Part shown: positions 5,190 through 59,868 of the stretch, in pieces
How positions within the stretch are numbered: the stretch's first letter is position 1
Layout: each line of letters begins with the position of its first letter
Assembly: GCA_963675785.1 (NCBI GenBank)
Contig: OY776562.1
Location: 672,001-736,000 of the forward strand
DNA from: Anaerolineae bacterium
GTDB lineage: Bacteria; Chloroflexota; Anaerolineae; UBA1429
DNA length: 64,000 bases
Direction of reading: 5' to 3'
The notes under the pieces: generated by a model
Seen by the model: only the letters and a program-made list of their open reading frames with translations
Databases searched by the model: none
What the model was told of the DNA's origin: nothing
Program-made: the position numbers and the translations under genes

Positions 5190-5257
5190 GCGCACCTTTC
5201 ATCGTGCGGTTCGTTCGGATGATGTGACCGTTGAAATAGCACACCCCAGTGGCTGTG

Positions 5258-10820: not shown

Positions 10821-10938
10821 ATCGCTTTCTTTATCACTTCACCCGGGGTGTGCTCACAATATCCCAGGATTTCTACAACCATTCGCCATCGCTGTGTTCA
10901 TACCAGGAGAGAGTATTACTGGCGAATGGTGTTATGAG

Positions 10939-11070: not shown

Positions 11071-11148
11071 TCTGTAGGATAAAACACGCCTATTAAGAGA
11101 AAACGAATGGCGGGTAAACTGTTTGTTAACGACCAGGAAACAAATACC

Positions 11149-20518: not shown

Positions 20519-20538
20519 TCTCAGGTGTCCTGTGTGAA

Positions 20539-22773: not shown

Positions 22774-22790
22774 AGGCTACAATAGAGGCG

Positions 22791-22819
22791 ATTATACTTT
22801 TGACATAATGGGGGGTCAA
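22791..22819 (-). promoter_or_regulatory. Sigma70-type promoter for the three-kinase unit
   Basis: Minus strand TTGACC-17bp-TATAAT. Confidence 0.75.
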
Positions 22820-22890
22820 GTGCTTGTGTGAAAACCGATTGCCTCTTGGCAGAGCCTTCGTGTTCGTGCATAATCTAGTATGTAATATTT

Positions 22891-36756: not shown

Positions 36757-37617
36757 TTGCGAACGTTCATGGATTGCTATGCTTGTTTTGTGGGCCAGGC
36801 TCTGGATGCTCTGCGTTTGGCTGGGGTCGAGGAATGCGTTCAGAAATCTGCCATGGAGAAGGTTCTGGCGTTGCTGCAGGGCCTGGAATTGACCACCACG
36901 CCGCCCGAGATCGGTCGTGACGTCCATGCCATCATCCGTAAAGTGACGGGGGTGGATGACCCTTACCTGAGCATCAAGACCGAAACCACTGGCATCGCCC
37001 TGGGGCTTTATCCTGCACTCAAAGAAAAGGTTGCGGTTTCGTCCGATCCGATAGATACGGCTATTCGTCTGGCTGTGGCCGGCAACATTCTCGATTCGGG
37101 TATCGCCAATCACACTTATGACATTATGGAGACCATCGAGCGGGCCTTGACGGACGATTTTGCCATTGATGATCGCCTCGCGTTGCGCCAGGCTTTTGAT
37201 AGGGCCGATTGGCTGCTCTATCTGGGCGATAACACTGGCGAAACGGTCTTTGACCGTATTCTTATCGAGACCTTGGCCATGCGCACCGTCTATGCCGTCA
37301 AAAGCGGTCCCATCCTCAATGATGCGACCCTGGCCGAGGCCCGCGATGCTGGGTTGGACGGCTGTGCCGAACTGGTGGAGACAGGGCTGCGCGCCCCTGG
37401 TTGCATCCTCGCCGATACTTCGGCAGCATTTCGCGAACTGTATGCTGCTGCGCCTCTGATCATCGCCAAGGGCCAAGGCAATTATGAGACGCTCAGCACT
37501 ACCAGTGATCCTCGTCTATTTCACTTACTTCAAGCCAAATGCCGCGTTATTGCTGCGGACCTGCGTGTTCCGCAATTCGGTCTTATCGTCGAGAGGTCTT
37601 TACGCAACCTTCATTGA
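36757..37617 (+). CDS. DUF89/ARMT1-like damage-control phosphatase
   Basis: N-terminal CYAC, AGNILD, DNTGE..FD, NDAT, KGQGNYE, AKC. Confidence 0.9.
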   Translation: MRTFMDCYACFVGQALDALRLAGVEECVQKSAMEKVLALLQGLELTTTPPEIGRDVHAIIRKVTGVDDPYLSIKTETTGIALGLYPALKEKVAVSSDPIDTAIRLAVAGNILDSGIANHTYDIMETIERALTDDFAIDDRLALRQAFDRADWLLYLGDNTGETVFDRILIETLAMRTVYAVKSGPILNDATLAEARDAGLDGCAELVETGLRAPGCILADTSAAFRELYAAAPLIIAKGQGNYETLSTTSDPRLFHLLQAKCRVIAADLRVPQFGLIVERSLRNLH

Positions 37618-37642
37618 CATGACCTTTACGCTCACCTAAACT
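37614..37642 (+). promoter_or_regulatory. Sigma70-type promoter for the giant surface protein
   Basis: TTGACA-17bp-TAAACT about 58 bp before the ATG. Confidence 0.65.
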
Positions 37643-37699: not shown

Positions 37700-40600
37700 A
37701 TGCCCAAAAGCCGCGGCATTCGTGTATTCGCTCGTTGTCTACTTGCTATCATCCTTTTCTCGCTGAGCGGTATGTCCGTTATGGCGGCTGGTGAAGAAAC
37801 TCCTGTTCCCTTGGTAGGATTATCAGGTAGTAACAGCGCTCTCATTGGTGAGAGCACGACTTTTTATGCCACCTTTGATAATACTTCTTCCGATTTGAAC
37901 GCTGTAGGCTATGGCCCCTTTATCGACATCGTTCTACCGACCAACGGTGCTGATGGCGTGGCGGGCACCGATATCGCCGACGGCCTTTCGTTCGTTAGTG
38001 CGACCTATGAGACGACTACTCTTGACCCCATCGTCATCGTGTTCGATGAGCTCGGGCAGGCTGAACACCCCCTGACCGGCGAGATCATTTCGGGCACACC
38101 CGGCGATGAGCTTGTGGTCTTTGAACTTCCTTTTGGCAGCTTTGTACCCGATCAGCCTTCTGTGCGCATTGCCATCCGTGCTTTGCTAAGTGAGTTTGCC
38201 GATCTGGATACTACACTTTATGTGACTTCTCGCGCCGGTTTCTACCTCGGCGCTGATCCTTTGAACAACCCCTCGACGGATGCACCCATCATCTCCGCCT
38301 GGTCTGATCCTGGCTTTGCCATGAGTCCCACCATTATGACCATCCATAAGGACTATATCGGGCCAGAGGACGAAACGGCTACTGGCCCCAACTGGGTGCG
38401 CCAGTATGAGATCAGGGTGAACATCGCCGATGGACAGCCGGTCTCGAATATCGAGTTATCTGATATTCTTCCGCCCGAGCTGGCCTATGTCTCGCTGGAT
38501 ACTGTGTCGCCTGCGGATTACACCCTTACGGCTGAACCGCCTTTGGCAGTTCCCTCCGAAAGCCCTACTAGCACCCTTAGCCTGACCTGGGAGGTCATCA
38601 CCGGCACGGGTTCATCTGCTGATATCACCGCTCGATTCTCTTTCTTTGTGCCCGAATATGACGCCTATGGCGACCCCATTCTGGATCCCCTGACTGGCGG
38701 CTGCACGACTATTTCCAATCAGGCGACGGCGAGCGGCACCTGGACGCCCATCGATGAGCGCGATGAAGAGGTTGTCCTCTCACAGCAATCGGCAGAGCAT
38801 GAAGCCGATTTCGAGGCCTGTGCTTTGGTCATCCAGAAAGATGTCTCCATCGTCAACGACCTTTTCACCAGCGGGGCTACCCCGGGAGACACACTCGGCT
38901 ATACCCTGCACATTCAGGCCTCGGATTATTACACCGTGGGCGGCGATGTCTCCTTTGTGGTCACCGATACCCTTTCTGACGGTCAGCTGTTTGCGTTTGA
39001 CAGCCTGAGTGGCGCTGATGCCAGTTATTCCATTGGGGATCGTGACGGCACAGCCACCGGCGTATTCACGGACGGCATCAATCTTGACGTGGATACCTCG
39101 CTGAACCCGCTTTATGGCACCAGCGGTGTCTGCGGAGGCGGCGAGACCATCCTTACCTTTGACCTGGGCACAGCTCTGGCCGCCAGTCTGACCCAGCCCG
39201 ATGCCCTTCTCACCGGTGGTTCTATTGGGCAGAGTGGCGATCCTTCTCAGGATCCGGCGTATCCCGCGCCTTGTGCACCAGCACAGGGTACTATTACCTA
39301 TCGCACAGTGATTCAAGAACAGTATGGTTGCACTGTGCCCTCTGGTGATCAGAGCATCGACCAGAACGACTATCTCGATAACGATGTCGATATCGTCGGC
39401 GGCGTTTACACAGGCGACCCCCTCACACTTACCGGCACCACTGGCGATGATAGCGCTGAACGTGTGGATTTAGTCGATGGCTCTATCTCCAAAGTAGTTT
39501 ATGCACGTAACGGCGTCATTGGCGATACGGGTCCCTTTGAGGCTGGTGATACCATTACCTATCGTATTCGATACAACCTGCCTACTGCCGATGTGGAAGA
39601 CCTCTCGCTCATCGACTTTTTGCCGTTACCCACGCTGCAGGTCAATGATTGGGATGCGGATAACACCACGGGCGATGCCGCGACCTGGATGTTTGATGAG
39701 GTGGTGGCTATTGATTCTGTGCCTGTCTCGGGCCACGCTTCCTACGGCCCAGCAGACACCTTCCACGAGATGTCGGGCGGCAACCCTTCGCCCGCGCCCG
39801 CCCCCGTGCTAACGGCAGATGCCTCGGGCAATAGCCTGACTTTTTACTATGGTAACCACGATATTGATAACGGTATTTCGGCTACCATCGACCTCTTGTT
39901 CACCGTTACCGTGCAGGACGATCCCTTTGCAGATGGCATGTACCTGACCAACCAACTGCAGGCAATAGAGCAAAACTCTTTCCTCGACGTGGTTACAACG
40001 ACCGACATCGTACAGATACAGTTGACTGGCCCCGAGCTCAATATTTACAAGGGCATCGTTTGGGCCAGCAATGGCGAACTCTCGCCTGCGACAGCCGCAC
40101 CTGTGGCTATGGATGTCGAAGCCTGCCCTGCCTTTAGCGAGGCCATTACTTCCGCGGGTTTGGAAACCAACCCCATTGATAGTGACCTTTCGGGCGTAGA
40201 TGGTGGCGATACCATTCGCTTTGCCATCGTGTTAGAGAATACCGGCACCGGTCCTTCTGGTGCTTTTGATGTCCAGCTCAGCGATGCCCTGCCGACTGGC
40301 ATCACGTCTGCTGATGTGCAAAACATCTGTGTCACCGATGGCGCAGGCACACCGCTTGCATATACCGAACTCGGTAGTGGCCTCTTTGATCTTGCTGGCG
40401 GTATCGAATTGACGGATGGCGCCGAGACTGGCGCTATCGGACCCTATTCCGAAGACGCCGGCACCAACATCGTCGTCGTTACCTATGATGTGGTCGTGCC
40501 AGCCTCTGCTGCTGTGGATTCTCTCTATGAGAACACTGCTTCCCTTGCGAACTATACCAACGTCGAGGGCGGCGAGGACTATATTGACAAATATGGCGTG

Positions 40601-43600
40601 GTGGAGGAGACGGCTTCTTGGGAGACGACCGATCCAACCGTCTCCAAGTCGTTGCTTTCTACCTCTGAGAGTCAGACATCCGGGAATAATGCGGTCATTG
40701 GCGAATTGGTGACTTATCAGGTGCAGATCGATCTGCCTGAAGGTACCACGCCCGATGCTGTGCTGGTGGACACCCTCGAAGCCGGCTTGGCTTTTGTCGA
40801 TGTGATCACGGTTACAGCGCCCGTGTCGATCACGACCGATTATGCCGGTAGTTGGGATGGCGTGGTCGCTGGTTCCTCTTTGGATAACGTGGGTACGGGA
40901 GATGCCAACGTCGACCGTCAACTCACTCTTTCTCTAGGTTCGCTGGTGAACAGCGACACCGACGACGAGACGACGGAATCTGTTACGGTGGAATATCGCG
41001 CCGTGGTGCTCAACACTCTGGCTAATGTTCGCGGTGTCTCTCGTGAGAACAGCGCCGTGCTTCAGTGGACCACCGGTTCCGATACGGCCGGCGCAGTCTC
41101 TGTAGTGGTGGTCGAGCCGCAATTCACGATTTCCAAGGATATGACGCCATCGACCGCTGATGCAGGCGATCAAGTGGTGATAACGCTTACTATCGCCAAT
41201 CCCTCGGCCTCCAGCCAGGTCGATGCTTATGATGTCTCTCTGGAGGATATGCTGTCGACCGGCCTGACTTTTGTAGGCTTTGGTGCGCAGACTGGCCTGA
41301 CGCCAGATAGTTTGACCGAAACAGACGGCCAAATCGATGCGACTTGGTCGGTGTTCCCTCTGAATCAAACGGCTACCGTCGTGTTTACCGCGACGATGGA
41401 TGCCGATGTCTCTGCCGGCCAAATCATCCAAAACGGTGCGACAGTTGAATGGGCTAGCAAAGCCGATGCTTCGACCGCTGGCGCGAATCCTCTTGGCGTG
41501 CGCCGTACTGGCGATACCAGCGATGCGGGTGCTTTGGCGAACGACTATCTTACCACTGCAGCGGACACCACCAGCGTTCCAGTAGCGATCGCCAAAACGC
41601 TCATCAGCACCTCTGAGAGCGAGACCACCGGCACCTATGTGGCTGTGGGCGAAATCGCGCGCTATCGCTTGGTAGCCACCATCCCCGAAGGCGAAACGGC
41701 TAGCCTAGTCATTCAAGATCGTATTCCCACGGGTCTTGGCTACCTGGATGACGGCACGGCTACGGCCGCCATCATTTCGGATGATGCTATGACCAGCACC
41801 CTGGCCGGCTCATTGGAATTGACCAGCATCTATACCACGGGTAGCAGTGTAGTGACGCCGGTGGTCGTATTGCCCGACACCATGGCTTCAAGCTCGCTTT
41901 CCGACACCGCTGCTGATACCTATAGTTCGGGCAGCGATGTCTATTTCCACTTTGGTACAGTAACCAACGACGATCGTGATGAAAACGCCGAATACATCGT
42001 CATCGAGTTCAACGCCCAGGTGCTCAACACCAGCACCGCTCAAGAGGGTGTTTCTCTTTCCAATAATGCCCGAATATACACTGGCAGCACCGTTGTGGCT
42101 ACGTCAGGCAGTGTGGCCGTGCGTGTGGCCGAACCCGTATTGACTGTCAACAAACAAATCATCACTGCTGCACCCTATGATGCGGCCGATGAGCTGGTTT
42201 ACGAGGTTGTGGTGACCAACAGTTCGACAGCGGGCAACGGCCGCATCGCCCATGAAGTTGTCATCAGCGATACCATCGATGCAGATACCACGTTGGTTTC
42301 GGCGGTGATGAGCAATGGCAATCCCGTTTCGGATATGGGCGCCTATGTACAGAGCAGCGTGGATTCGCTCGCTCCGGGTGAGAGCGTGACACTCACGGTG
42401 ACCGTTGACATCAGTGATGCCGTGGCGCCAGCAACTGCCGTTGCCGATACAGCCACTGCCAGTTGGACCAGCCTGCCTGCTTCTGGAACCACCTCTAACC
42501 CTACAGGCTCGGTTGTACTCGGAAGTCAGGGCGCGGCGAATGGCGAGCGCGATGGTTCGGGCGGTGTGAATGACCATATCACCAATGATAGTGTGTCGGT
42601 TTCAGTGGACAATGTGGCCCCCACCAAAGTGCTGCTTGGCACTTCGGAAGACGATACCAGCGGCACCAATGTCGCCATCGGCGAATTAGCTACGTTTGAG
42701 ATCGAGGTGGTGATTCCCGAGGGAGCAACTTCGGTGATGACCATCACCGACGCCATTCCCAATGGCCTGTGGGTTGATCTCTCAACGGTACAGCTCAATT
42801 TCGGCACCTCGGTTACGGCTGTGAGCAGCGATGTTTCCGGTGGTGGCAGTAGTGGTGCCGATCTGGTAGTAGCTTTGACGGATTTGGTGGTTGAGGCCAA
42901 CAATGTGGCCGATGACAACTTGCTGACCATCACCTACACGGCCCATGTGGTGGATGAATCCGGCATTTCTGGCATTACCGTGCCTACGCAAACCGTGCTT
43001 AGCAATGGTGTCAGCGTACAAGTGGGTTCTTCGCCTGTGGTGAACGCTACACCCGTCAGCTTGCGTGTGGTTGAACCGCGCCTTCAGATCGTCAAAGAAA
43101 TGTCACCCGATCCCATTGCCCTCGATGATACCTTGGTCATGACGGTGACGGTTCGTAATACCGGTCTGGCTTCAGCGTATGATCTTGCGGTGAGTGATCA
43201 GGTGCCGGGCACCTATGTCGAGAATCTGACCCTGACCAATGTTTCGGCAGGCGCCTCACCTTCCACTTCTGTGGTAGGCGATGATCTGCTGGTGACTTTG
43301 ACCCAGGATACCCTCGTGGCCGGAGCAGAAATGAGCTTTGTCGTTACCGGCACGGTCAAGGCTGGTGTGCCCTATCAAACGGTGATAACCAACTCGGCCA
43401 CCGTAACCCAAGCGACGACATTGCCTGGTGACGATCCGCTGGAACGCACTGAACCCGAGGTTAGTGATGCTGAGAACGTAACCGTCGGTCGCCCCGATAT
43501 CGTGGTGACCAAGACGGATAACGTCACCATTGCGGCACCTGGCGATACCTTGAACTATGTGATCACCGTGCGTAACGCAGGTAATGTTCGCGCCACTGGC

Positions 43601-46600
43601 ATTGTGGTTACTGATACTCTGCCAGCATTGGCGTCTTATGTGGTCGATTCGGCCAGCGATAGCGGCACCTATGATGTAGATGCTCGCCAGCTCAATTGGG
43701 CCGTTGCTCTATTGGCCCCCGGTGGGTCGGTCAACTTGACCTACTCTGCGTTGATGGATGCTTATGTCTCCGAGTTTGCCGAGAGTATTACCAATACGGT
43801 CTCGGCGGCAGACGATGGCGTTCGCGGCGAAGATCCTAATCCTGATGATAACCATGACACCGACATAGACACTATCAATGCTACGGCTGTGGCTGAGGTC
43901 ACCAAAGAGGCCCTCACCGAGAGCCCCGTGGCGCCAGGCGACCCCGTGAGCTACTCGGTTGAGGTGACCAATACCGGCGACCGCGAAGCCGAGATGGTGT
44001 TGGTTGATGCTTTGGATGATGTCGATCTCTCACTGGTGGTGGGCACCGTTGCGACCACCCAGGGAACGGTGGTGCTGGGCAACACGCCTGGCGATACAAC
44101 GGTTCGCGTTGAACTGGGCACGGTAGCGCCTACTGATATCATTACGGTGACCTTTGGCGGCCTTACAGCCGATCCAATCACCAAGGCTGTGGCTCAGGTC
44201 GAGAACCAAAGCACAGTTTCGGGTAATAGTATCACCACGGTTGATTCGGACGATCCCACCACGCCTGCGGCAGATGATCCTACCATAGTGCCGGTGAACG
44301 CTTTGGCCCAGGTGGAAAGCACCAAGGCCGACCTGCTCTTGCTCGACGGCAACTCGGACGGCATCGTCAATCCGGGCGATACGCTACGCTACACGGTCAT
44401 CATCAGCAGTACCGGCAACATGCCGGCGAACGGCGTGATCTTCAGCGACACGCCTGATAGCAACACAGCCCTTGTGGTTGGCAGCGTTACCACGACGCAG
44501 GGTTCGGTGACTATGGGCAACAATGCAGGGAATAGCACAGTTTCTGTTGCGCTGGGGCAACTGCCTGCTGGTTCTACCGCCACCATCACCTTTGATGTGA
44601 TCGTCGATAATCCGCTTCCTGCGGACATCGAGTCCGTGGCCAATCAGGGCCTCGTCTCGGGGGACAACATCACCCCGGTTTCTACCGATGATCCCGACAC
44701 GCCTGATGAGGGCGACGAGACCGTGACGCCTGTGGTAACTACCCATACATTGGTTAGCACCAAGACTGTAGCTCTGTTGACCGACTCGGACAGCGACGCT
44801 CAGGTCTCGCCGGGCGACGTGCTCGAATACACCGTGGTAGTCACCAATACAGGCGATATTGCCGTGACCTCATTGGTCATCAGTGATGTGCTTGATAGCA
44901 ACCTGGCGTTGGTGGTGGGCAGTGTTGCCACGACGCAGGGCACGGTGACCAATGGGAACACCTTGGGGGATACCGATATCGAGGTGACTTTGGGGGAACT
45001 AGCCGGCGGCAATGCTTTTGCTACGGTCACCTTTGCGGCAACGATCGTGAATCCGCTGCCTGAGGGAGTGGACACGGTGACCAACCAGGCTTTGGTGCAA
45101 TCCAACGAGGTCGCTGATGTGCTTACCGACGATCCGACTACGGATATGCCGGATGATCCCAATGTGACGCCTGTAACAGCCGCACCGGAAATCATGGTAA
45201 CAAAGGATGATGGTGTGAGTCTCGACGATACCCTTGTACCCGGTGATGTCTTTACTTATACGCTAACTGTTGAGAACGTGGGTAACCAAGATATTGCCCT
45301 AGTTCTGGACGATGATATAGAAGATACCAACCTGTCTTTGGTGGCTGGCACTGTAACGACTACTCGAGGCACGGTGCTGTTGGGCAACAGTTCAGATGAC
45401 GCAGTGCAGGTCGATTTGGGGACGATGTCGCCGAGCACTGGCATCATCACCGTTACTTTCCAGGTGCAGGTGAATGATCCTATCGTCGGTGGTGTGGATT
45501 CCGTGGCTAACCAGGCCTTGGTGTCTGGTGAGGGTGTTGAGGAATCCTCGAATGATCCCGAAACGCTCGCCGAGGACGACCCAACCGTGACCTATGTCGA
45601 TGCGGCGCCGGCAGTGGATATGCTCAAATCAGCGGCCTTGCTCAATGATGTCGATACTAACGGTGTGGTCTCGCCGGGCGATGTGCTGCGCTATACCCTC
45701 CTTACCGAGAACAGTGGTAACGCCAGCGCCATGAACCTTACGCTGGAGGACACACCGGATGCGAATTCGACGCTGATCACGGGTACCGTGACCGCCACAC
45801 AGGGAACCGTAACCACAGGGAACGGTGCTGGCGATGTGACAGTGGCCGTGAGCGTGCCCGAGTTAATGGGCAGCGAATCCTTTACGGTGACCTATGATGT
45901 GATGGTTAACTATGCCTTTACCGAGGCCATCACGCTAACCAACCAAGCTCTGATCGATTTCGATGAGACCACCGAGCCTATACCCAGCGATGATCCCGGA
46001 ACGCCCGAAGAGGATGATCCCACGTTGGTGCCGGTGGATATCACACCAGCGCTGATGCTTACCAAGACGGATAGCCTTCTTCTCGACGAGAACGAGGATG
46101 CCGCCTTGAACCCCGGCGAGACGCTGGTCTATACCATCGTCCTGACCAACAAAGGTTTTCAACCCGCCTCGGCGGTGGTTTTGACCGACACCATCGATTC
46201 GGGTGCTGTGCTGGTAACAGGTACGGTGACAAGCACGCTGGGTACTGTAGTTGAGGGCAATGGCGCCGAGGATACGGCTGTGCGCGTCGAGTTGGATACA
46301 CTAGAGGCCCAAGCCGTTGTGACGGTGAGCTTTCAGGTGACGCTACCCTTCGATTGGCCGTTGGATGTGACCGAAATCGCCAACCAAACAGTGCTAACTA
46401 GTGCTGAGACAGAGCCGCTTGTTAGCGATGACCCCGAAACCGACGAGGCCGATGATCCAACGGTAACGCCGATAGTGGCCCAGCCGGATGTGTTGGCTTT
46501 CAAAGTAGATGAACTGCTCGATGATGTCGCTCAGGATGGGGCGATCAGCGCGGGTGATGCCCTACGCTACACCATCACACTGAACAATGTGGGCACTGGG

Positions 46601-47257
46601 CCAGCGAGCAGCGTGGTTTTGAGTGATACATTGGATACCAATACCTCACTCATTGCGGGTTCGGTAACGACGACCCAGGGTATGATCAATATTGGCAATG
46701 GCCAGGCTGATACGGCAGTGCAAGTGACTATCGATGAGCTTTTGCCAGGAACAGTGGTTACCGTTACTTATGATGCGCGTATTGCCAGCGAACTTGCGCC
46801 GGGCACGGTGCTGAGCAACCAGGCCGTGATCTCGAGCCCTGATTTTCTCACAAAGTACAGCGATGATCCTGCGGCAGGTGGCGATGAAGATCCGACCGAG
46901 ACGCCGGTGGTGCCACCTACAGCAATCGACTTGCTCTCTTTTGGGATCACAGGGGTGCATGGTAGCCAGGTCGATCTGGCCTGGACGACGGCTACTGAAG
47001 TGGACAACCAGCGTTTTGAGATCTGGCGGGCCGATTCATCTTCGTTCTCCGAGGCCACACAGGTGGGCACGGTGATGGCTCAAGCCGCCGCAGCGAATGG
47101 TGCCAGCTATGCCTGGAGCGATACGGACGTGCCCGATGGTGCCTGGTGGTACTGGCTTGTTGATGTCGATTCTGAGGGTGCCAGCCAGGTACATTATGAT
47201 AGAGTCCGAGTGGCTGTTGTGGGACGCCAGTTTTACCTGCCCTTGTTGTTCAACTAG
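37700..47257 (+). CDS. 3185-aa secreted surface protein with isopeptide-forming fimbrial (D2-type) / DUF11 repeats
   Basis: Signal peptide; many K...GD/GExxTYxI...DxLP...NxA modules; very acidic, Thr/Val rich; C-terminal PTAIDLLSF...W.TATEVDN.RFEIWR domain; ends FYLPLLFN; no TM anchor or LPXTG. Confidence 0.92.
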   Translation: MPKSRGIRVFARCLLAIILFSLSGMSVMAAGEETPVPLVGLSGSNSALIGESTTFYATFDNTSSDLNAVGYGPFIDIVLPTNGADGVAGTDIADGLSFVSATYETTTLDPIVIVFDELGQAEHPLTGEIISGTPGDELVVFELPFGSFVPDQPSVRIAIRALLSEFADLDTTLYVTSRAGFYLGADPLNNPSTDAPIISAWSDPGFAMSPTIMTIHKDYIGPEDETATGPNWVRQYEIRVNIADGQPVSNIELSDILPPELAYVSLDTVSPADYTLTAEPPLAVPSESPTSTLSLTWEVITGTGSSADITARFSFFVPEYDAYGDPILDPLTGGCTTISNQATASGTWTPIDERDEEVVLSQQSAEHEADFEACALVIQKDVSIVNDLFTSGATPGDTLGYTLHIQASDYYTVGGDVSFVVTDTLSDGQLFAFDSLSGADASYSIGDRDGTATGVFTDGINLDVDTSLNPLYGTSGVCGGGETILTFDLGTALAASLTQPDALLTGGSIGQSGDPSQDPAYPAPCAPAQGTITYRTVIQEQYGCTVPSGDQSIDQNDYLDNDVDIVGGVYTGDPLTLTGTTGDDSAERVDLVDGSISKVVYARNGVIGDTGPFEAGDTITYRIRYNLPTADVEDLSLIDFLPLPTLQVNDWDADNTTGDAATWMFDEVVAIDSVPVSGHASYGPADTFHEMSGGNPSPAPAPVLTADASGNSLTFYYGNHDIDNGISATIDLLFTVTVQDDPFADGMYLTNQLQAIEQNSFLDVVTTTDIVQIQLTGPELNIYKGIVWASNGELSPATAAPVAMDVEACPAFSEAITSAGLETNPIDSDLSGVDGGDTIRFAIVLENTGTGPSGAFDVQLSDALPTGITSADVQNICVTDGAGTPLAYTELGSGLFDLAGGIELTDGAETGAIGPYSEDAGTNIVVVTYDVVVPASAAVDSLYENTASLANYTNVEGGEDYIDKYGVVEETASWETTDPTVSKSLLSTSESQTSGNNAVIGELVTYQVQIDLPEGTTPDAVLVDTLEAGLAFVDVITVTAPVSITTDYAGSWDGVVAGSSLDNVGTGDANVDRQLTLSLGSLVNSDTDDETTESVTVEYRAVVLNTLANVRGVSRENSAVLQWTTGSDTAGAVSVVVVEPQFTISKDMTPSTADAGDQVVITLTIANPSASSQVDAYDVSLEDMLSTGLTFVGFGAQTGLTPDSLTETDGQIDATWSVFPLNQTATVVFTATMDADVSAGQIIQNGATVEWASKADASTAGANPLGVRRTGDTSDAGALANDYLTTAADTTSVPVAIAKTLISTSESETTGTYVAVGEIARYRLVATIPEGETASLVIQDRIPTGLGYLDDGTATAAIISDDAMTSTLAGSLELTSIYTTGSSVVTPVVVLPDTMASSSLSDTAADTYSSGSDVYFHFGTVTNDDRDENAEYIVIEFNAQVLNTSTAQEGVSLSNNARIYTGSTVVATSGSVAVRVAEPVLTVNKQIITAAPYDAADELVYEVVVTNSSTAGNGRIAHEVVISDTIDADTTLVSAVMSNGNPVSDMGAYVQSSVDSLAPGESVTLTVTVDISDAVAPATAVADTATASWTSLPASGTTSNPTGSVVLGSQGAANGERDGSGGVNDHITNDSVSVSVDNVAPTKVLLGTSEDDTSGTNVAIGELATFEIEVVIPEGATSVMTITDAIPNGLWVDLSTVQLNFGTSVTAVSSDVSGGGSSGADLVVALTDLVVEANNVADDNLLTITYTAHVVDESGISGITVPTQTVLSNGVSVQVGSSPVVNATPVSLRVVEPRLQIVKEMSPDPIALDDTLVMTVTVRNTGLASAYDLAVSDQVPGTYVENLTLTNVSAGASPSTSVVGDDLLVTLTQDTLVAGAEMSFVVTGTVKAGVPYQTVITNSATVTQATTLPGDDPLERTEPEVSDAENVTVGRPDIVVTKTDNVTIAAPGDTLNYVITVRNAGNVRATGIVVTDTLPALASYVVDSASDSGTYDVDARQLNWAVALLAPGGSVNLTYSALMDAYVSEFAESITNTVSAADDGVRGEDPNPDDNHDTDIDTINATAVAEVTKEALTESPVAPGDPVSYSVEVTNTGDREAEMVLVDALDDVDLSLVVGTVATTQGTVVLGNTPGDTTVRVELGTVAPTDIITVTFGGLTADPITKAVAQVENQSTVSGNSITTVDSDDPTTPAADDPTIVPVNALAQVESTKADLLLLDGNSDGIVNPGDTLRYTVIISSTGNMPANGVIFSDTPDSNTALVVGSVTTTQGSVTMGNNAGNSTVSVALGQLPAGSTATITFDVIVDNPLPADIESVANQGLVSGDNITPVSTDDPDTPDEGDETVTPVVTTHTLVSTKTVALLTDSDSDAQVSPGDVLEYTVVVTNTGDIAVTSLVISDVLDSNLALVVGSVATTQGTVTNGNTLGDTDIEVTLGELAGGNAFATVTFAATIVNPLPEGVDTVTNQALVQSNEVADVLTDDPTTDMPDDPNVTPVTAAPEIMVTKDDGVSLDDTLVPGDVFTYTLTVENVGNQDIALVLDDDIEDTNLSLVAGTVTTTRGTVLLGNSSDDAVQVDLGTMSPSTGIITVTFQVQVNDPIVGGVDSVANQALVSGEGVEESSNDPETLAEDDPTVTYVDAAPAVDMLKSAALLNDVDTNGVVSPGDVLRYTLLTENSGNASAMNLTLEDTPDANSTLITGTVTATQGTVTTGNGAGDVTVAVSVPELMGSESFTVTYDVMVNYAFTEAITLTNQALIDFDETTEPIPSDDPGTPEEDDPTLVPVDITPALMLTKTDSLLLDENEDAALNPGETLVYTIVLTNKGFQPASAVVLTDTIDSGAVLVTGTVTSTLGTVVEGNGAEDTAVRVELDTLEAQAVVTVSFQVTLPFDWPLDVTEIANQTVLTSAETEPLVSDDPETDEADDPTVTPIVAQPDVLAFKVDELLDDVAQDGAISAGDALRYTITLNNVGTGPASSVVLSDTLDTNTSLIAGSVTTTQGMINIGNGQADTAVQVTIDELLPGTVVTVTYDARIASELAPGTVLSNQAVISSPDFLTKYSDDPAAGGDEDPTETPVVPPTAIDLLSFGITGVHGSQVDLAWTTATEVDNQRFEIWRADSSSFSEATQVGTVMAQAAAANGASYAWSDTDVPDGAWWYWLVDVDSEGASQVHYDRVRVAVVGRQFYLPLLFN
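43880..46912 (+). repeat. Seven tandem ~140-aa intragenic repeats
   Basis: Each unit has K..(DxxxDG-like)..PGD.L.YT, LV.G(S/T)V.TTQG.V..GN, NQ, (S/T)DDP...DP; counted seven in the translation; boundaries approximate. Confidence 0.85.
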
Positions 47258-47287
47258 TACGCAGCTCATCATAGAAGGAAGCAAACC

Positions 47288-47914
47288 ATGAAGCGTATGA
47301 TTCTGATACTGTCGATACTAGTAGGGATGCTCATTGCGGCACAGCCGGTAGCAGCTGGCTTTACGCCGACGCCCGTTGCTCCCACTGTGGCGCCAACGGT
47401 TACACCAATCCCCACTGGCGTCGTTTCCGATTCTTCCGAGAATTGCGCGGCGCAACTGGTGGTTGAGTTGCTTGGCGATGTTCCTGAGGGTCTGGTGGTT
47501 TCGGGCTGGCTGGGTAGCGACAGCAGCAATCAGTCCGAACCGACTGGCTCTATGGCTTTTGAGAGGCCCTGGTTGGGGCAGATTTTGGGTATCCCCATCT
47601 CACCCAAAACAACCTACCAAGTTTGGGGTTGGACAGAACAGGGTGGGTGGATATACTTTTTCGAGGTGACTGCTGGTGGTTGTGTGGATGTGTTGGGGCA
47701 GCACGCGTTCTACACTGCTACGTCAACGGCCACGCCCGTTCTTGCGCCAACGCCAGCCGAATTGCCCGAGACAGGTGGTATGGCACCATCTATCCCCTGG
47801 GGGCAAATTGCTTTGGCTGTGACGGGTGTAGGTGTGCTCTGGCAGGGTATTGCTTCTGGTACGCTCCTACCCAACCGGCGCTCCAAGCGCTCAGAACGTT
47901 ATCGCGATCAATAA
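47288..47914 (+). CDS. Small secreted protein with LPXTG sortase sorting signal
   Basis: Signal peptide, PT-rich ends, LPETG (47762-47776), then a hydrophobic segment and RRSKR tail. Confidence 0.8.
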   Translation: MKRMILILSILVGMLIAAQPVAAGFTPTPVAPTVAPTVTPIPTGVVSDSSENCAAQLVVELLGDVPEGLVVSGWLGSDSSNQSEPTGSMAFERPWLGQILGIPISPKTTYQVWGWTEQGGWIYFFEVTAGGCVDVLGQHAFYTATSTATPVLAPTPAELPETGGMAPSIPWGQIALAVTGVGVLWQGIASGTLLPNRRSKRSERYRDQ

Positions 47915-48009
47915 CGCGGGATTGCAGAGAGGCTCTCTGTGCTCTCTGTTTCTAGTGTATGGCCAGGGGGGACAGCAATTCTCGCGGATTGCCATGGCCT
48001 GCACAATTG

Positions 48010-48043
48010 GGCGAGCCGTCGGATTGTCTGACGGCTCGCCTTT
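48010..48043 (+). terminator. Strong hairpin, terminator-like, just before the C25 RBS
   Basis: GGCGAGCCGTCGGA-TTG-TCTGACGGCTCGCC followed by TTT. Confidence 0.6.
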
Positions 48044-48059
48044 GCTATAGGGAGATACG

Positions 48060-50783
48060 TTGAAAAGACTTGTAGTCATCCTCTTGTTGATGCTTGTCAA
48101 CGGGAGTGCCCTGGTGAGTGCTGCTGTGCCTGTCGCACAGCCAGCTTCAGCGGGACGCACGGTAATCGTATACCAGGATGGCCTGACGGTCTCTTGGAGC
48201 ACCCCCGATCTTGCCATTGCTGCCGAAGAAGATAGCATAGTAAGCGTCCATGCTGGCGAATGGGCAGTGGATACCGTTGAGAATAGCAGTGTATCCTTGC
48301 CCTACGATGCCCTCCTTATCGCCCTTCCTCCCAATATAGAGCCTCAATTGACGATAATCTATCCCGATGCGCAGTATGTTACTTCCCTAGCGCTCTCTGC
48401 ATCAACTGACACGAGTTCCCCCGTTACTTTTGTCGAATTAGGCACCTCGGCGGGCGTGCGGCTGGCTTCGCTGCGCTTTGATTGTGCCACTGTACAAGAG
48501 GGAGAACTATTCTACTGGCCCTCGGCCTCGGTGGAGATATCCTGGAATACTGCTGTGGTGGATGAAGGGCAGCCTGCGCCTGCCTGGGTGGCCGATTCGG
48601 TGGTAAATCCCCAACATGCGCTTGTTGCGCGTGAGGCCAATATCATTCAAACGGCCATGCCCAGTGTTGAGGGCGATCTCTATGCCCAGGTGGACGAGGC
48701 CGGCTTGTACAGCCTGGATGCAGCCCTTTTGGTTGCGCAAGGTTGGGAGAGCGTCGATCTGCGTCAGGTCTGTGTTTTCCATGGCGACGAGCAGGTGGCG
48801 ACCCTCATCGAGGACGATGGCGATATCATGCTGGAGAGCGGTGAACGTATCCTCTTTTATGCCGAACCCGAACACAATCGCTATGCACTGGATGACGCCT
48901 ATCGCATCACGCTGGATGCCAGCGCCTTGGCAATGGACACACGCTCCGCCTCATTGGGCACACTGCCAGAGGCATCATTACGGCGTAGCGTGCTCTTGGA
49001 GCAGGATTTACTCTATACCCCGGACTGCCTGTGCGGCAGCTTGCCCGCTGGCCATGATGGTGATATGTGGGCCTGGGCCTATTTGCGCGTGCCCGATGCG
49101 ACCGCTTTCGAGACATCGGTCGATCTCGATGATGTGGCTGTAAATGCCTCCGGTGTCGTGACGGCCTGGTTCATCGGTGGCACCTCGGTGCTCGATTACC
49201 CTGATCATATGGTGGAATTGTGGATCAATGGCGTGCGCGTAGGGCAGGGTAGCTTTGATGGCAAGACTCTCTACGCACTGGAAGTAGACATCCCCTCTGG
49301 CGTATTGGTACAGGGTGAGAACACCTTGCGCGTGGTGCTGCCCGGGAGTGGTGCTTCGGTTGAGGCTTGCTGGCTGGACGCCATCCAGCTCTCTTACAGT
49401 TGCGATGCTTTCTCTGTTGGTGGACAGCTCATCGTCGAGGGGGAAGAGTCAGTCTCTACCTATCAGGTAATCCTTGGTTCCGGCGATCTTTTATTTGACA
49501 TAACAGATGTATTCACGCCTGTTCAATTGGATACAGGCGCATCTTCAGGAAGCGTGTACTTGACCGATACAACCGGCGGGCAGCGTTATCTGTTGGTGGA
49601 TGAGGATGCGTTTCTTACGCCTGTGCTACGTCAAGCGCAGCAGGTGGAGGATGAATCGGGGAACTGCCTCATCATCACTCAGGCAGAGCTAATGCCCGCT
49701 GCACAGCGTTTGGCGGCTTGGCGAACTGCACAAGGCTATGGGGTGGTGCTAGTCAACGTGCAGGCTATCTATGATACCTTTGGCAGCGGTGTTGCCGAGC
49801 CAGAGGCCATCCGCGCTTATTTGCAGTATGCCTATGAAGAATGGCCTGCTGACATAGCTGGCGTCACACTGTTTGGTGGGGGCACCAGTGATCCCCGCCA
49901 GAACGTGACGGACATTGAGACTTTTATCCCAATCTATCTAGCAGATGTCGACCCCTGGGCTGGCGAGACCGCGGCGGATAACCGTTATGCTTGTGTGGAT
50001 GGTGCTGACAGTCTTCCTGATCTGGCTTTGGGGCGCCTGCCGGCCTGGTCGTTGGCTGAGGCGCAGACAATGGTGGATACGCTCGTCGCTTACGAGAGTG
50101 ATGGAGACCGTCAGCCATGGCATGGTTCGGCCGTGCTGGTTTCCGATGATCAAGATACAGCCGGAGACTTTGAGGCTATCTCTGAACAGTCGGCGGCGCA
50201 GCTGCCACAGGGAACTGTGGCGCAAACACTTGTGCTAGAGGGGGCCAGTGCCTCATATTCTGATGGCACTGAGGCGGATGCGGCCTCTATTCGGCAAGCG
50301 CTGGTTGCGGCCTGGCAGCAGGGGATTGCCTTTGTGCAATTTTCCGGGCACTCTTCCTGGCAACAGTGGGCTATCGAATCGGTGCTGCACCTGGATAATT
50401 TGCCCTGGCCTAATACTATTGGTCAGGTGCCCGTAGTGTTGGAGCTCACTTGCTTTACGGGGGCGTTTCAGCGCCCCGAAGCCACGCTGGATCGAACCCT
50501 GGTCTCCAGCGGGAAAGCCATAGCGGTTTTTGGCCCTTCGGGTTTAGGCATCAACACCGGTCATGACCAACTGGCGCAGGGTTTTGTGGCGGCTCTGTAC
50601 GACCAAGAGCAGATGTTGACGCTGGGCCAGATAGCCAATGCCGCCCGGTTGCAATTGGCTGCTTCCGGACGGCATCTAGAGTTATTGGATACCTATACTT
50701 TACTAGGTGATCCGCTGGTGGTTCCCCATACAGGTGCGGGTAGTCTACCCTATGCTTGTTACCTTCCTCTGAATTTGCGCTAG
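48060..50783 (+). CDS. Secreted C25 family (gingipain/PorU-like) cysteine peptidase
   Basis: Signal peptide; AGLYSL, ILFYAE, IYDTFG..PEAIRAYL, ADNRY, PDLALGRLP, FSGHSS (His), LTCFTG (Cys), YTLLGDP; ends CYLPLNLR. Confidence 0.9.
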   Translation: MKRLVVILLLMLVNGSALVSAAVPVAQPASAGRTVIVYQDGLTVSWSTPDLAIAAEEDSIVSVHAGEWAVDTVENSSVSLPYDALLIALPPNIEPQLTIIYPDAQYVTSLALSASTDTSSPVTFVELGTSAGVRLASLRFDCATVQEGELFYWPSASVEISWNTAVVDEGQPAPAWVADSVVNPQHALVAREANIIQTAMPSVEGDLYAQVDEAGLYSLDAALLVAQGWESVDLRQVCVFHGDEQVATLIEDDGDIMLESGERILFYAEPEHNRYALDDAYRITLDASALAMDTRSASLGTLPEASLRRSVLLEQDLLYTPDCLCGSLPAGHDGDMWAWAYLRVPDATAFETSVDLDDVAVNASGVVTAWFIGGTSVLDYPDHMVELWINGVRVGQGSFDGKTLYALEVDIPSGVLVQGENTLRVVLPGSGASVEACWLDAIQLSYSCDAFSVGGQLIVEGEESVSTYQVILGSGDLLFDITDVFTPVQLDTGASSGSVYLTDTTGGQRYLLVDEDAFLTPVLRQAQQVEDESGNCLIITQAELMPAAQRLAAWRTAQGYGVVLVNVQAIYDTFGSGVAEPEAIRAYLQYAYEEWPADIAGVTLFGGGTSDPRQNVTDIETFIPIYLADVDPWAGETAADNRYACVDGADSLPDLALGRLPAWSLAEAQTMVDTLVAYESDGDRQPWHGSAVLVSDDQDTAGDFEAISEQSAAQLPQGTVAQTLVLEGASASYSDGTEADAASIRQALVAAWQQGIAFVQFSGHSSWQQWAIESVLHLDNLPWPNTIGQVPVVLELTCFTGAFQRPEATLDRTLVSSGKAIAVFGPSGLGINTGHDQLAQGFVAALYDQEQMLTLGQIANAARLQLAASGRHLELLDTYTLLGDPLVVPHTGAGSLPYACYLPLNLR

Positions 50784-57761: not shown

Positions 57762-58823
57762 ATGGATACAGCAGCTTTGCTGCAAGAGTTTTCAGATGCT
57801 CACGGCGTCTCTGGTTATGAGGATGCCCCTAGGGCCATCGCCCAGCGGGTTCTTGAACCCCTGGTGGATTCAATGCGTGTGGACGCCCTCGGCAACCTGA
57901 TTACCTTTAAAAAGGGTACAGGCGATGCCAATGGCAAACACCGCACCATGATGCTTGCGGCCCACATGGACGAAATCGGCATGATGGTAACGGGTTATTC
58001 TGGCGGTTTTTTGCGCGTATTCCGCGTAGGCGGCTCAGACCCTCGCACGCTGGTCGGCCAAGAAGTGGTGGTGCATGGCGTTCGCGATTTCCCCGGTGTT
58101 ATCGCCAGTCGTCCGCCCCATGTGCTTTCTGCCGAGGACCGCAAAAAGACGCCCGATTGGAATGATCTCTATATTGATATCGGCGCCACAGCCGATGAGA
58201 TTGAGGGACTTGTGACCATCGGCGATACCATCACCCTGCGTTCGTCCTTCGTCAAGCTAAGCGGCGGTTATGCTGCAGGCAAGGCCATGGATGACCGTGC
58301 TAGCGTGGTGACGATTGCCCTCTGTATGCAAGAGCTTGCGGGTGTGACTCACGAATGGGACATAGCCGCTGTAGCCACCACGCAAGAAGAAGTGGGACTC
58401 CGTGGCGCTATCGTGAGCGCTTTTGGCGTTGCACCGGATGCGGCTATCGCTATCGACGTGGGTTTTGGCGCTCAGGTGGGCGTTGATCCCAATATCAGCA
58501 TCAAGATGGATGGTGGGCCTTGCCTGTCGATCGGTCCCAATTTCCATCCAACCATGTATCAGGGTCTCATAGATGTCGCCCAAAAGCGCGAGATCAAAAT
58601 ACAGAGCGAAGTCATCCCCGGAGCCAGCGGTACCGATGCTTGGGGTATCCAGATAGCTCGCGAGGGTGTACCTACCGCGTTGCTTGGCTTGCCCCTGCGC
58701 TACATGCACTCTAGTGTCGAGACTGTTGCCATTGCCGATGTCGAGCGCACTGGGCGTCTGATGGCGGCGTTCATCCAGTCGCTCAAGGGCGATATTGAGC
58801 TCGACGCGCAGGCAAAGGAGTAA
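57762..58823 (+). CDS. M42 family (TET) aminopeptidase, paralog 1
   Basis: AAHMDEIG, KAMDDR, QEEVG, AIDVG, GTDA, RYMHS. Confidence 0.93.
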   Translation: MDTAALLQEFSDAHGVSGYEDAPRAIAQRVLEPLVDSMRVDALGNLITFKKGTGDANGKHRTMMLAAHMDEIGMMVTGYSGGFLRVFRVGGSDPRTLVGQEVVVHGVRDFPGVIASRPPHVLSAEDRKKTPDWNDLYIDIGATADEIEGLVTIGDTITLRSSFVKLSGGYAAGKAMDDRASVVTIALCMQELAGVTHEWDIAAVATTQEEVGLRGAIVSAFGVAPDAAIAIDVGFGAQVGVDPNISIKMDGGPCLSIGPNFHPTMYQGLIDVAQKREIKIQSEVIPGASGTDAWGIQIAREGVPTALLGLPLRYMHSSVETVAIADVERTGRLMAAFIQSLKGDIELDAQAKE

Positions 58824-58827
58824 TAAC

Positions 58828-59868
58828 GTGCTGCTAGAAAAAATCTCGAATGCCCGCGGCGTATCGGGCAATGAAAAAGGGGTACGCCAGGTACTGCGCG
58901 AGGCTGTGGCCGAGTATTGCGATGACATAAAAGTGGATGCCCTCGGCAACCTCATCTGCTACAAAAAGGCTCGCACGGCCACCACCGACAAGCCACTTCG
59001 CCTCATGGTCTCGGCGCACATGGATGAAGTCGGCCTCATCGTAACGGGTTTTAACGGCGATGGCACCCTGCGCTTTGGCTGTGTAGGCGGCATCGATGGC
59101 CGCGTGTTGGTGGCTCGCACCGTGTTGATTGGCGATACAGAGGTGCCCGGCGTTATTGGCTGCTCACCTATTCACTTGGTGCCTGCCGAAGCGCGCACCA
59201 AGGCCGTAGATGCAGACAAGCTGGTGATCGACATCGGGGCTACTGACGAGGCTTCAGCCCGTAAATTGGTCAGCTTGGGCGATTATGCCTGTTTTGCCGT
59301 TACCTACGAGCCCTTGCTCGATGGTCAATTGCGGGCCGTCAAAGGCAAGGCCTTTGACGATCGCGCTGGTTGCACCGTCTTGGTCGAACTACTCAAAGAG
59401 GACTTGCCCGTCGATCTCTACGCTTGCTTCACCTCTCAAGAAGAGGTCGGTTTGCGTGGCGCTAGGGTAGCGGCTTATGCCGTCGATCCCGATGCGGCCA
59501 TCGCTCTCGAGGGCACCATCTGTGATGATCTGCCCAAGGAACAAGACAAGACGCCCGTTACCGAGGTGGGCAAGGGACCGGCAATTACCTTTATGGATCG
59601 CTCCTTTATTGCTGATCAGCGTTTGGTCAAACTGTTGACCAGTACAGCAAAAGCTGAGGGCATTCCTTGCCAGTTCAAGCGGGCCGCGGCTGGTGGCACC
59701 GATGCTGGCGCTATCCATCTGGCGCGTGAGGGTGTTCCTTCGGTAACTGTTGCTGTGCCCTGTCGCTATATTCACGCTCCGGCGAGCGTACTCAGTTTGA
59801 ATGACTTGGAAAACACCGTCCAGCTCCTGGCTGCGGCGATCAAGAGAATGAACGGAGGCCTGGCATGA
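58828..59868 (+). CDS. M42 family aminopeptidase, paralog 2
   Basis: GTG 58828 after AAGGAG; SAHMDEVG, KAFDDR, QEEVG, ALEGT, RYIHA. Confidence 0.92.
   Translation: MLLEKISNARGVSGNEKGVRQVLREAVAEYCDDIKVDALGNLICYKKARTATTDKPLRLMVSAHMDEVGLIVTGFNGDGTLRFGCVGGIDGRVLVARTVLIGDTEVPGVIGCSPIHLVPAEARTKAVDADKLVIDIGATDEASARKLVSLGDYACFAVTYEPLLDGQLRAVKGKAFDDRAGCTVLVELLKEDLPVDLYACFTSQEEVGLRGARVAAYAVDPDAAIALEGTICDDLPKEQDKTPVTEVGKGPAITFMDRSFIADQRLVKLLTSTAKAEGIPCQFKRAAAGGTDAGAIHLAREGVPSVTVAVPCRYIHAPASVLSLNDLENTVQLLAAAIKRMNGGLA

Follow-up and report, generated by a model that had tools for sequence, protein, structure and literature searches.

A candidate surface-protein sorting module with a PorU-like C25 peptidase in Chloroflexota

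How is a surface protein of 3185 amino acids mounted on a cell when it carries neither a membrane anchor nor an LPXTG signal? The question is raised by a stretch of 64,000 nucleotides of an Anaerolineae bacterium (contig OY776562.1, positions 672,001 to 736,000; from here on the window), in which the gene of a giant repeat protein is followed by the genes of a small protein with an LPXTG-type sorting signal, here called the stalk (208 aa), and of a cysteine peptidase of family C25 (907 aa). C-terminal sorting systems set bacterial surface display, and sortase/LPXTG, exosortase/PEP-CTERM and PorU, which serves the C-terminal domain (CTD) of type IX secretion system (T9SS) cargo, are such systems. 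The analysis of the three genes and of the neighbourhoods of related C25 genes inclines us, on balance, to the view that they form a Sec-dependent surface-protein sorting module in which the C25 enzyme processes cargo proteins that bear a CTD. What carries this view are the genes and their motifs, their conserved linkage, the likeness of the enzyme to PorU and a docking prediction made with controls.

The three open reading frames (ORFs) all lie on the forward strand and are separated by 30 bases (giant to stalk gene) and 145 bases (stalk gene to C25 gene, which has a TTG start); their coordinates are compiled in Table 1. A Kyte-Doolittle scan found a hydrophobic, signal-peptide-like N-terminus in all three (residues 6-32, 1-26 and 1-27), in line with the preliminary description of three co-oriented secreted proteins; the signal peptide of the giant is judged from hydropathy alone, with no dedicated cleavage-site prediction. 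The giant matched the isopeptide-forming fimbrial-type domain TIGR04226 in four stretches (170 bits, cutoff 30; the bonds themselves are predicted) and the repeat TIGR01451 in ten (275.4 bits, cutoff 24); in Pfam, DUF11 was found in nine stretches (8.7e-86), besides DUF7619, DUF7507 and DUF7927. When the protein was scanned as 24 overlapping segments of 260 aa, segments 6-13 and 15-23 matched one or both of the two TIGR models and segments 1-3, 5, 14 and 24 matched neither. Neither an LP.T[GAN] motif nor a C-terminal hydrophobic segment was found in the whole 3185-aa sequence. The earlier statement that the giant has no transmembrane anchor and no LPXTG signal thus stood, but the picture of a protein without any C-terminal signal did not, since a P-T-A-I boundary, a CTD and a YLP-box tail are present.

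A tail of the pattern h-L-P-L ends 2 of the 43 ORFs of the window, i.e. the giant and the C25 enzyme only. The consensus of this tail, the YLP-box, reads [RQ]-h-[YF]-L-P-h-h-x-[RK]-COOH, the commonest spacing being four residues after the Pro, and both tails of the window fit h-[YF]-L-P-h-h with four residues after the Pro. The first seven distant C25 homologues carry the motif at the end (e.g. FLPLVSRRR) or inserted within the protein (e.g. IYLPLVARN). In NCBIfam the motif is covered by NF050076 (sort_motif_YLP) and NF053834 (ultrashort_CTERM), titled 'YLP-box putative sorting motif-containing protein'; the YLP-box thus exists in database curation, and a search of the full-text literature gave no published account of it. 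Ahead of the tail, the upstream proteins of related loci share about 110 residues (alignment of 33 sequences) with the pattern P-T-A-V-E-L-L-x-F ... W-x-T-A-x-E-x-D-N-x-G-F ... W-W-Y-W-L-x-D-V-D-T ... H-G-P, and the C-terminal order is a CTD ending in H-G-P, about 10 variable residues and the YLP-box. Residues P, T, A and V/I of the boundary motif were 82-97% conserved in this alignment, and PTA[VI] occurs once in the 3185 residues of the giant. NF050076 and NF053834 matched 9 and 5 of the 33 aligned CTDs, and the NF050076 cutoff (15 bits) was passed by three of four related cargo tails tested (15.6, 18.2 and 15.6 bits). The AlphaFold2 (AF2) model of the CTD is a seven-strand sandwich with a low-confidence tail (predicted local distance difference test, pLDDT, 86.8), and fn3 domains were its best Foldseek matches. 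The CTD matched no Pfam or NCBIfam family, the best matches being chance-level ones to fn3 or Kre9. The family is very large: 70,907 representative proteins match at E<=1e-3, and 12,742 still do so at E<=1e-10; a YLP-like tail was found on 104 of the best 150 of them, and on 113 when the tails were aligned more loosely at the Pro.

The C25 enzyme matched PF01364 (Peptidase_C25) at 6.4e-74 (249.9 bits, cutoff 23) over profile positions 2-372 of 374. The His and Cys motifs are kept, as had been described before: His764 and Cys798 were invariant in 61 aligned homologues and, in a profile search, fell on the GH and C motifs that are catalytic in PorU and RgpB. Further columns invariant in the 61 homologues are Y319, P329, G334, W337, W339 and T375 of the middle beta domains, in which the C25 family has a signature motif beginning YTPDCLCG. 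A profile search of the PDB with the C25 family gave PorU of Porphyromonas gingivalis (6za2) at 5.9e-40, RgpB at 4.5e-34 and Kgp at 4.7e-16, and profile positions 56-201 matched a 214-residue Kgp fragment (5mun_A, 1.6e-16), which we take to be the Kgp pro-domain; PF08126 is annotated on two C25 homologues (P0005 and P0013). The AF2 model of the enzyme (pLDDT 88.2; predicted template modelling score, pTM, 0.89) has strands across residues 32-161 and a disordered tail (pLDDT <50 at residues 895-902). In a Foldseek search PorU 6za2 came first (3.7e-29; TM-score 0.46/0.39) and was aligned over 792 columns, whereas the gingipains aligned over 376-397 columns only, i.e. the catalytic and Ig-like part. 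Therefore, the enzyme is PorU-like over its whole length. The NCBIfam PorU models were the best named matches but stayed below cutoff (NF033707, 200.6 vs 420; NF052324, 103.5 vs 450), so that the enzyme is PorU-like, yet no PorU by curated cutoffs.

The neighbourhoods of related enzymes were collected by a profile search of genome contigs with the C25 alignment, and 80 of the 95 relatives that it found were retained; the loci were thus picked via the C25 gene. In these 80 loci, 932 ORFs were called mechanically, and the C25 ORF was callable in 78. The relatives are 27-43% identical over the best-matching segment, and in 77 of the 80 loci the title refers to Chloroflexota or to a taxon within it, from class down to genus (among them Anaerolineae/-ales, Thermoflexales, Caldilineales, Ardenticatenaceae, Promineifilaceae and Leptofilum); the titles of the other three read 'uncultured bacterium' (L033 and L062) and Cellvibrionaceae (L057). 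Among the loci that carry the module are L030, titled Litorilinea aerophila, and some titled Thermoflexus. A hidden Markov model of the CTD was matched by 51 of the 932 ORFs, every one of them on the strand of the C25 gene. Fifty CTD ORFs with a called C25 gene lie at positions -4 to +2 relative to it, 35 of them at -1, and none of the approximately 466 ORFs farther from C25 carries a CTD. The domain stands at the very C-terminus in 47 of the 51 ORFs, the cargo proteins are between about 340 and over 3300 aa long, and of the 67 loci that include 600 or more bases of upstream sequence, 45 have CTD cargo. The YLP tail was present on 62 of the 76 C25 homologues whose 3' end is complete, and several of the misses are close variants (e.g. 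LNLPVIRR). A stricter tail pattern was matched by 51 of 76 C25 genes, by 23 of 64 genes at -1 and by 0-6 genes at any other position. After clustering of the 932 ORFs, only C25, cargo and sortase proved to be widely shared; the remaining clusters were families of a few loci, and those inspected looked unrelated to sorting. T9SS genes were found neither in the window nor in those parts of the related loci that were inspected.

The structure of the complex was predicted with residues 25-890 of the enzyme (its own tail excluded) and the C-terminal 120 residues of the giant, an alignment being supplied for either chain. The interface score ipSAE amounted to 0.83, 0.82 and 0.83, and the best of three controls reached 0.01. 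In the calibration of the tool, 116 of 157 solved complexes and 2 of 215 mismatched pairs reached the mark used for docking; these counts hold only roughly because the alignments were our own. We know of no comparable complex, and therefore a pass from model memory seems unlikely. The runs agreed in at least 95% of the contacts, with a partner pLDDT of at least 81. On the enzyme, the predicted interface comprises the active-site region (residues 633-634, 700-704, 763-769 with His764, 796-799 with Cys798, and 829-835) and the middle domains (318, 322-326, 341, 343, 345-347, 374-377, 402, 433-434 and 436). On the cargo it comprises the conserved boundary VPPTAI (positions 6-11 of the 120 residues, 3071-3076 of the giant) as well as 33-40 (the E-x-D-N-x-G-F loop), 61-69 and 91-95 (the D-V-D-T loop); judging by the strand order of the model, these segments together occupy the N-terminal end of the sandwich, opposite to where the YLP tail exits. 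In the CTD, conservation was higher at the interface than elsewhere in the domain (0.68 vs 0.54; 153 of 10,000 random draws were as high, p ~0.015), and so it was in the catalytic domain (p ~0.015), as is expected for an active site. The prediction supports binding of the CTD by the C25 enzyme. The earlier suggestion that the enzyme acts on the C-terminus of the giant was upheld as far as the CTD is predicted to dock with the active site in the interface, but the predicted site is the linker ahead of the CTD and not the extreme C-terminus.

The third gene of the cluster encodes a protein with a complete sorting signal, as noted before: a signal-like N-terminal segment and, at the C-terminus, LPETG followed by about 25 mostly hydrophobic residues and a basic tail (RRSKRSERYRDQ). 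The stalk matched no Pfam or NCBIfam family and no NCBIfam anchor model at E<=0.01, and a single distant relative with 71% identity (P0167) was found in a large protein set. Small LPXTG stalk proteins were found 13 times in 12 of the 80 related loci, at most two genes from C25. Most of them consist only of a signal peptide, a proline/threonine-rich (P/T-rich) linker and the sorting signal; one DUF11 domain was found in 5 of the 12 that were scanned. Their mature part starts with [GA]-[IFLV]-T-x-T in 13 of 13 cases, as compared to 13 of 844 other ORFs, and the form with G was found in 10 of the 13 and in 5 of the 844; three of these five adjoin a C25 gene and are two stalk-like proteins and one sortase. 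A conserved N-terminal motif is what an acceptor would show, and for this reason the stalk is the candidate acceptor. Sortases made up one protein cluster with 24 members, each about 270 aa long, which are encoded in 22 of the 80 loci at positions +1 to +3 and on the C25 strand, and the Pfam Sortase domain was found in 22 of the 23 members scanned; counted over the loci with at least 2.5 kb downstream, 21 of 66 have a sortase. The LPXTG and cargo genes found beside C25 in related loci lend weight to the preliminary suggestion that the three kinds of gene belong together. The general sortase model was passed by three of seven linked sortases tested and the class-specific NCBIfam cutoffs by none; an assignment to a sortase class was rejected because every class-specific score was far below cutoff in these seven.

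Two further stalk-like proteins (L028:12844-13431 and L052:4361-4768) start with GFTPT or GITPT, adjoin C25 genes and end in P-[AS]-L-G-E, a hydrophobic segment and a basic tail in place of LPXTG. In both loci a sortase gene lies just downstream, and P-[AS]-L-G-E may be a variant sortase signal. One sortase (L049:12844-13584) has an N-terminal GFTNT motif and a stalk-like P/T-rich linker of its own.

Table 1 Features of the three-gene cluster, in coordinates of the window
Feature	Position	Strand	Basis
Giant cargo gene, adhesin-like repeat protein, 3185 aa	37700..47257	+	ORF, DUF11, TIGR04226
Signal-peptide-like N-terminus of giant, ~residues 1-30	37700..37789	+	hydrophobic segment 6-32, mean hydropathy 2.09
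Repeat region of giant, TIGR04226 isopeptide-type and TIGR01451 DUF11 domains, ~residues 830-3050	40187..46849	+	windowed scan
P-T-A-I boundary motif, giant residues 3073-3076, proposed cleavage region	46916..46927	+	conserved, in predicted interface
fn3-like beta-sandwich CTD, giant residues ~3075-3173	46922..47218	+	alignment, AF2 model, Foldseek
YLP-box tail of giant, QFYLPLLFN-COOH (protein ends ...GRQFYLPLLFN)	47228..47254	+	aligns with NF050076-passing cargo tails
Small P/T-linker stalk protein with LPXTG-type signal, 208 aa	47288..47914	+	ORF, sequence
G-F-T-P-T motif, predicted mature N-terminus of stalk, residues 24-28, after ...PVAA	47357..47371	+	motif counts
LPETG motif of stalk, residues 159-163	47762..47776	+	sequence
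PorU-like C25 cysteine peptidase gene, 907 aa	48060..50783	+	PF01364, PorU profile and fold matches
N-terminal beta domain like gingipain propeptide, ~residues 32-161 (mapping approximate)	48153..48542	+	5mun_A match, model strands
Middle beta domains, predicted CTD-docking surface, residues 318-436, family motif YTPDCLCGSLPAGHDGDMW	49011..49367	+	predicted interface
C25 catalytic domain, residues 537-887; His764 (50349-50351), Cys798 (50451-50453)	49668..50720	+	PF01364, conservation
YLP-box tail of C25 enzyme, CYLPLNLR-COOH (protein ends ...ACYLPLNLR)	50757..50780	+	sequence

These findings can be joined to a model, in which the role of the YLP-box, the cleavage, a transpeptidation and the acceptor are what we infer. 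Sec would export all three proteins. The giant isopeptide/DUF11 repeat protein would be the cargo, with a C-terminal cassette of P-T-A-(V/I), CTD, short disordered linker and YLP-box, and the YLP-box would hold enzyme and cargo at the envelope; most simply, it would be a co-localising tag for a putative receptor. The middle beta domains of the enzyme would dock the end of the CTD that bears the E-x-D-N-x-G-F and D-V-D-T loops, docking would put the pre-CTD linker VPPTAI at His764/Cys798, and the CTD plus YLP-box would be cut off. By analogy with PorU, the new C-terminus of the cargo would then be passed to an amine acceptor of the envelope, for which the conserved N-terminal G-h-T-x-T of the stalk is the best candidate, and a sortase would fix the P/T-rich LPXTG stalk to the wall. 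The most far-reaching form of this model would be a two-enzyme relay of monoderm Chloroflexota, in which sortase anchors the stalk via LPXTG while the PorU-like C25 enzyme docks the CTD, cuts at P-T-A and ligates the cargo onto the G-h-T-x-T of the stalk, with the YLP-box holding both at the envelope meanwhile. That the relay is right in all its parts we consider quite unlikely.

Several observations weigh against the sorting module or parts of it. The window's own two tails, which end in LLFN and NLR, were matched by neither NCBIfam YLP model at a threshold as loose as E<=10, and the YLP tail of the cargo is absent from the confident interface of the predicted complex. The docking support is a model confidence value rather than a measurement, the position of the P-T-A linker in the active-site cleft is deduced from the interface list and the strand topology, and the interface of the middle domains was not significantly more conserved than its surroundings (0.59 vs 0.53, p=0.13). 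Neither BLAST nor phmmer gave a significant match of the stalk to any of the 932 locus ORFs, and it is therefore treated as a positional and compositional class, not as a family. Furthermore, no adjacent CTD cargo was found in 22 of the 67 C25 loci with upstream sequence, a sortase is nearby in only about a third of the loci, and in the window itself no sortase family was found in a Pfam scan of 39 of the 40 other non-overlapping ORFs of at least 90 aa (the 100-aa ORF at 10780-11082 was left out). The same scan found no T9SS family in the window, and both negatives agree with what had been stated before.

An unlikely alternative keeps the recognition and gives up the transfer: the C25 enzyme would recognise and cut the CTD but only hydrolyse, so that the adhesin is matured or shed from its YLP-box tether, and the LPXTG stalk and sortase would be a separate wall-anchoring pair that shares the operon. 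Linkage, PorU fold and docking hold equally for this alternative. The remaining C25 relatives of solved structure, the gingipains, are listed as proteinases, the gingipain-like N-terminal domain suggests a protease of the zymogen type, and two thirds of the loci have no sortase or stalk nearby. Yet the fold match over the whole length is to PorU, with twice the columns of the gingipains, and PorU is described in PMC5121618 as a sortase that removes the CTD. In the window the stalk gene sits between cargo and enzyme, and the conserved N-terminal motif of the stalks would be needless in a plain wall spacer; both count against this alternative.

Quite unlikely, in our estimate, is also that the YLP-box is read by other machinery, or by sortase as a degenerate L-P-x, and that the C25 protein is one more cargo, i.e. 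a secreted protease beside an adhesin. In its favour, enzyme and cargo share one kind of tail, the YLP-box is also found at the end of proteins that lack a CTD (L026 at +5, L046 at +3, L070 at +2 and L072 at +12), the tail lies outside the confident interface of the predicted complex and the titles of the NCBIfam YLP models name no enzyme. But the shared tag is no argument against an enzyme role, because PorU, the sorting enzyme of T9SS, bears a CTD itself (PMC11285876). Besides, the clustering of the 932 ORFs revealed no other gene family conserved beside the cargo, and the predicted complex engages the active site, with the controls at 0.01. Moreover, in roughly two of three loci there is no sortase, and the adjoining stalk proteins already have canonical LPXTG signals of their own.

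An ordinary T9SS PorU with the rest of its system elsewhere in the genome is highly improbable: PorU is the best relative in sequence and fold and its NCBIfam models are the best named matches, but the scores are below both cutoffs, neither the giant nor the 33 CTDs match the T9SS type A tail (profile-profile probability 1.7%), 77 of the 80 related loci carry titles of Chloroflexota or its groups, no T9SS family is in the window, and reviews describe T9SS as limited to Bacteroidetes/Bacteroidota (PMC5445135, PMC11611037 and PMC10202324). Just as remote is the view of the giant as a sortase-assembled pilus or fibre subunit with C25 unrelated to its anchoring, which its four TIGR04226 isopeptide-forming fimbrial-type domains and the adjoining LPXTG protein would suit, but which is disfavoured by the missing LP.T[GAN] motif and C-terminal hydrophobic segment and by a C-terminus that is the CTD/YLP cassette common to the cargo beside C25 genes.

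A few observations concern the same proteins in other contexts. The CTD was tried as a T9SS CTD and rejected: TIGR04183 (type A) was matched neither by the giant nor by the 33 CTDs at E<=1, and hhalign against seven confirmed T9SS CTDs gave the probability mentioned above. In seven proteins (P0018, P0051, P0076, P0097, P0116, P0130 and P0151) three or four tandem CTD-type sandwiches stand upstream of a T9SS type A sorting domain; this domain was found after the sandwich in 7 of the 7 proteins tested (32-45 bits, cutoff 23). Three other members of the CTD family (P0048, P0061 and P0122) end in a hydrophobic segment and a basic tail. Because YLP, T9SS type A and hydrophobic/basic ends follow it, the sandwich is placed just before several kinds of sorting signal, and from these sequences it seems to be a general spacer ahead of several kinds of anchor signal; that it precedes other sorting signals elsewhere would fit a role beside an anchor signal. 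Of the giant itself, a 98% identical protein (P0168) is encoded on a contig of 2.59 Mb, and its last 146 residues as query found only the 98% identical copy, in a search restricted to similar protein lengths.

Some C25 homologues carry an internal YLP box. A canonical YLPLVxR was found in 10 of 78 (L006, L010, L014, L033, L048, L059, L060, L063, L073 and L078), at about residue 490-530 where the N-terminus is complete, and an internal box is also present in three of the eight sequences of the first C25 alignment (P0005, P0009 and P0010). It lies in a loop inserted after the middle beta domains and ahead of the domain that follows them; in the window C25 this corresponds to about residues 460-466, near the predicted CTD-docking strands 433-448. 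L033, P0005 and P0010 have the internal box without a C-terminal one. A self-cleavage site, a cis tag or a pseudo-substrate are candidate roles.

Among the related loci, L057 (JBLIMP010000198.1), which is binned as Cellvibrionaceae (Gammaproteobacteria), encodes a C25 enzyme with an FLPVINR tail and has a transposase-like ORF upstream; it is either mis-binned or a transfer. Most tail matches at +2 and +3 belong to a different family that ends in HPSALLLPLT and is only superficially YLP-like. This protein of 568-581 aa is encoded at +2 to +4 in loci of Promineifilaceae, Ardenticatenaceae and Leptofilum (L029, L031, L036, L038, L044, L047, L050, L051 and L065), where its gene is syntenic with those of a membrane protein (478 aa) and of another protein (292 aa) in a lineage-specific manner.

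The remaining ORFs of the window were assigned by the Pfam scan to ordinary metabolism and signalling. At 1927-7165 a pyruvate formate-lyase-like glycyl-radical enzyme and its radical-S-adenosylmethionine activase are encoded beside an aldehyde:ferredoxin oxidoreductase, and these genes point to an anaerobic lifestyle. Four adjacent sensor histidine kinase genes are located at 16212-25836, three of them hybrid with receiver domains and one with a seven-transmembrane N-terminus, and three M42 aminopeptidase paralogues lie in tandem at 57762-60860. A scan for promoters and terminators gave 10 promoter-like sites (9.2+/-2.3 in shuffles) and 16 terminator-like sites (10.5+/-3.4) and is evidence neither for nor against an operon. 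One promoter-like site (37614-37642, 10 of 12 matches) lies 58 bases ahead of the start of the giant gene, and a weak terminator-like hairpin (47923-47941) follows directly on the stalk gene; neither class was above shuffles.

What would the module mean, and how does it compare to known systems? It would place a PorU-type enzyme outside a T9SS setting and pair it with a new class of putatively cleavable CTD and with the YLP-box, with a tie to sortase genes, and a motif that so far existed in a database only would gain a candidate enzyme and a concrete candidate cleavage site. Filamentous Chloroflexota are common in activated sludge and in sediments, and the module suggests a way in which they mount adhesins of very large size. 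As a tool for protein ligation, a transpeptidase whose docking domain is defined could also be of use. If the relay were true, it would be a new protein-sorting system and would make CTD sorting of the PorU type independent of, and perhaps older than, the T9SS machinery. In the full-text literature no description of the link between enzyme and YLP-box, of the CTD or of the stalk was found, and a search there for peptidase C25 or PorU in Chloroflexi/Chloroflexota gave only apparently unrelated papers, as judged by title and the start of the abstract.

Transpeptidases that act on short C-terminal signals are known in clan CD from family C13, i.e. the butelase-type asparaginyl ligases of plants and the glycosylphosphatidylinositol transamidase, which are caspase-fold cysteine enzymes that swap the signal for an amine nucleophile. 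The proposed transfer by the C25 enzyme would follow this principle in a different family. The gingipains are T9SS cargo and not sorting enzymes; RgpB and Kgp resemble the window enzyme in the catalytic domain, and its N-terminal domain is like the Kgp fragment, but their fold match is limited to the catalytic and Ig-like part. With the sortase/LPXTG anchoring of monoderms the locus shares the LPETG/hydrophobic/basic end of the stalk and the sortase genes that follow C25 in 22 of 80 loci. Unlike in that system, the giant cargo has no LPXTG, the linked sortases stay below the class-specific cutoffs, and the stalks are mostly bare P/T linkers with the conserved N-terminal G-h-T-x-T. With NF050076 and NF053834 the extreme C-terminal motif is shared in that related cargo tails pass the cutoff, but the two tails of the window itself lie outside these models. 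The models cover only a motif of 10-11 residues and, compared by name and description, their titles name no enzyme, CTD or sortase link.

The closest system is that of PorU. Both enzymes have a C25 catalytic domain with a His/Cys dyad in a multi-domain fold that matches over 792 columns. The cargo ends in a seven-strand beta-sandwich, as described for T9SS CTDs in PMC11285876, and the action is predicted at the N-terminal boundary of this domain; like PorU, which according to the same source has its own CTD, the enzyme carries the C-terminal tag of its system, which is here the YLP-box. Unlike PorU, the C25 enzyme of the window is below both NCBIfam PorU cutoffs. The fn3-like CTD has no profile likeness to T9SS CTDs and is followed by an extra, ultrashort YLP tail, the related loci almost all bear titles of Chloroflexota or its orders, no T9SS gene is in the window, and a sortase/LPXTG link is found in about a third of the loci. 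The source lineage of the window is presumably monoderm. T9SS cargo is described as attached to anionic lipopolysaccharide (A-LPS) in PMC12704123, and A-LPS cannot be the acceptor if there is no outer membrane. The motif as such was already known from NCBIfam; the new elements with respect to PorU and T9SS are the YLP-box and the link to sortase and stalk.

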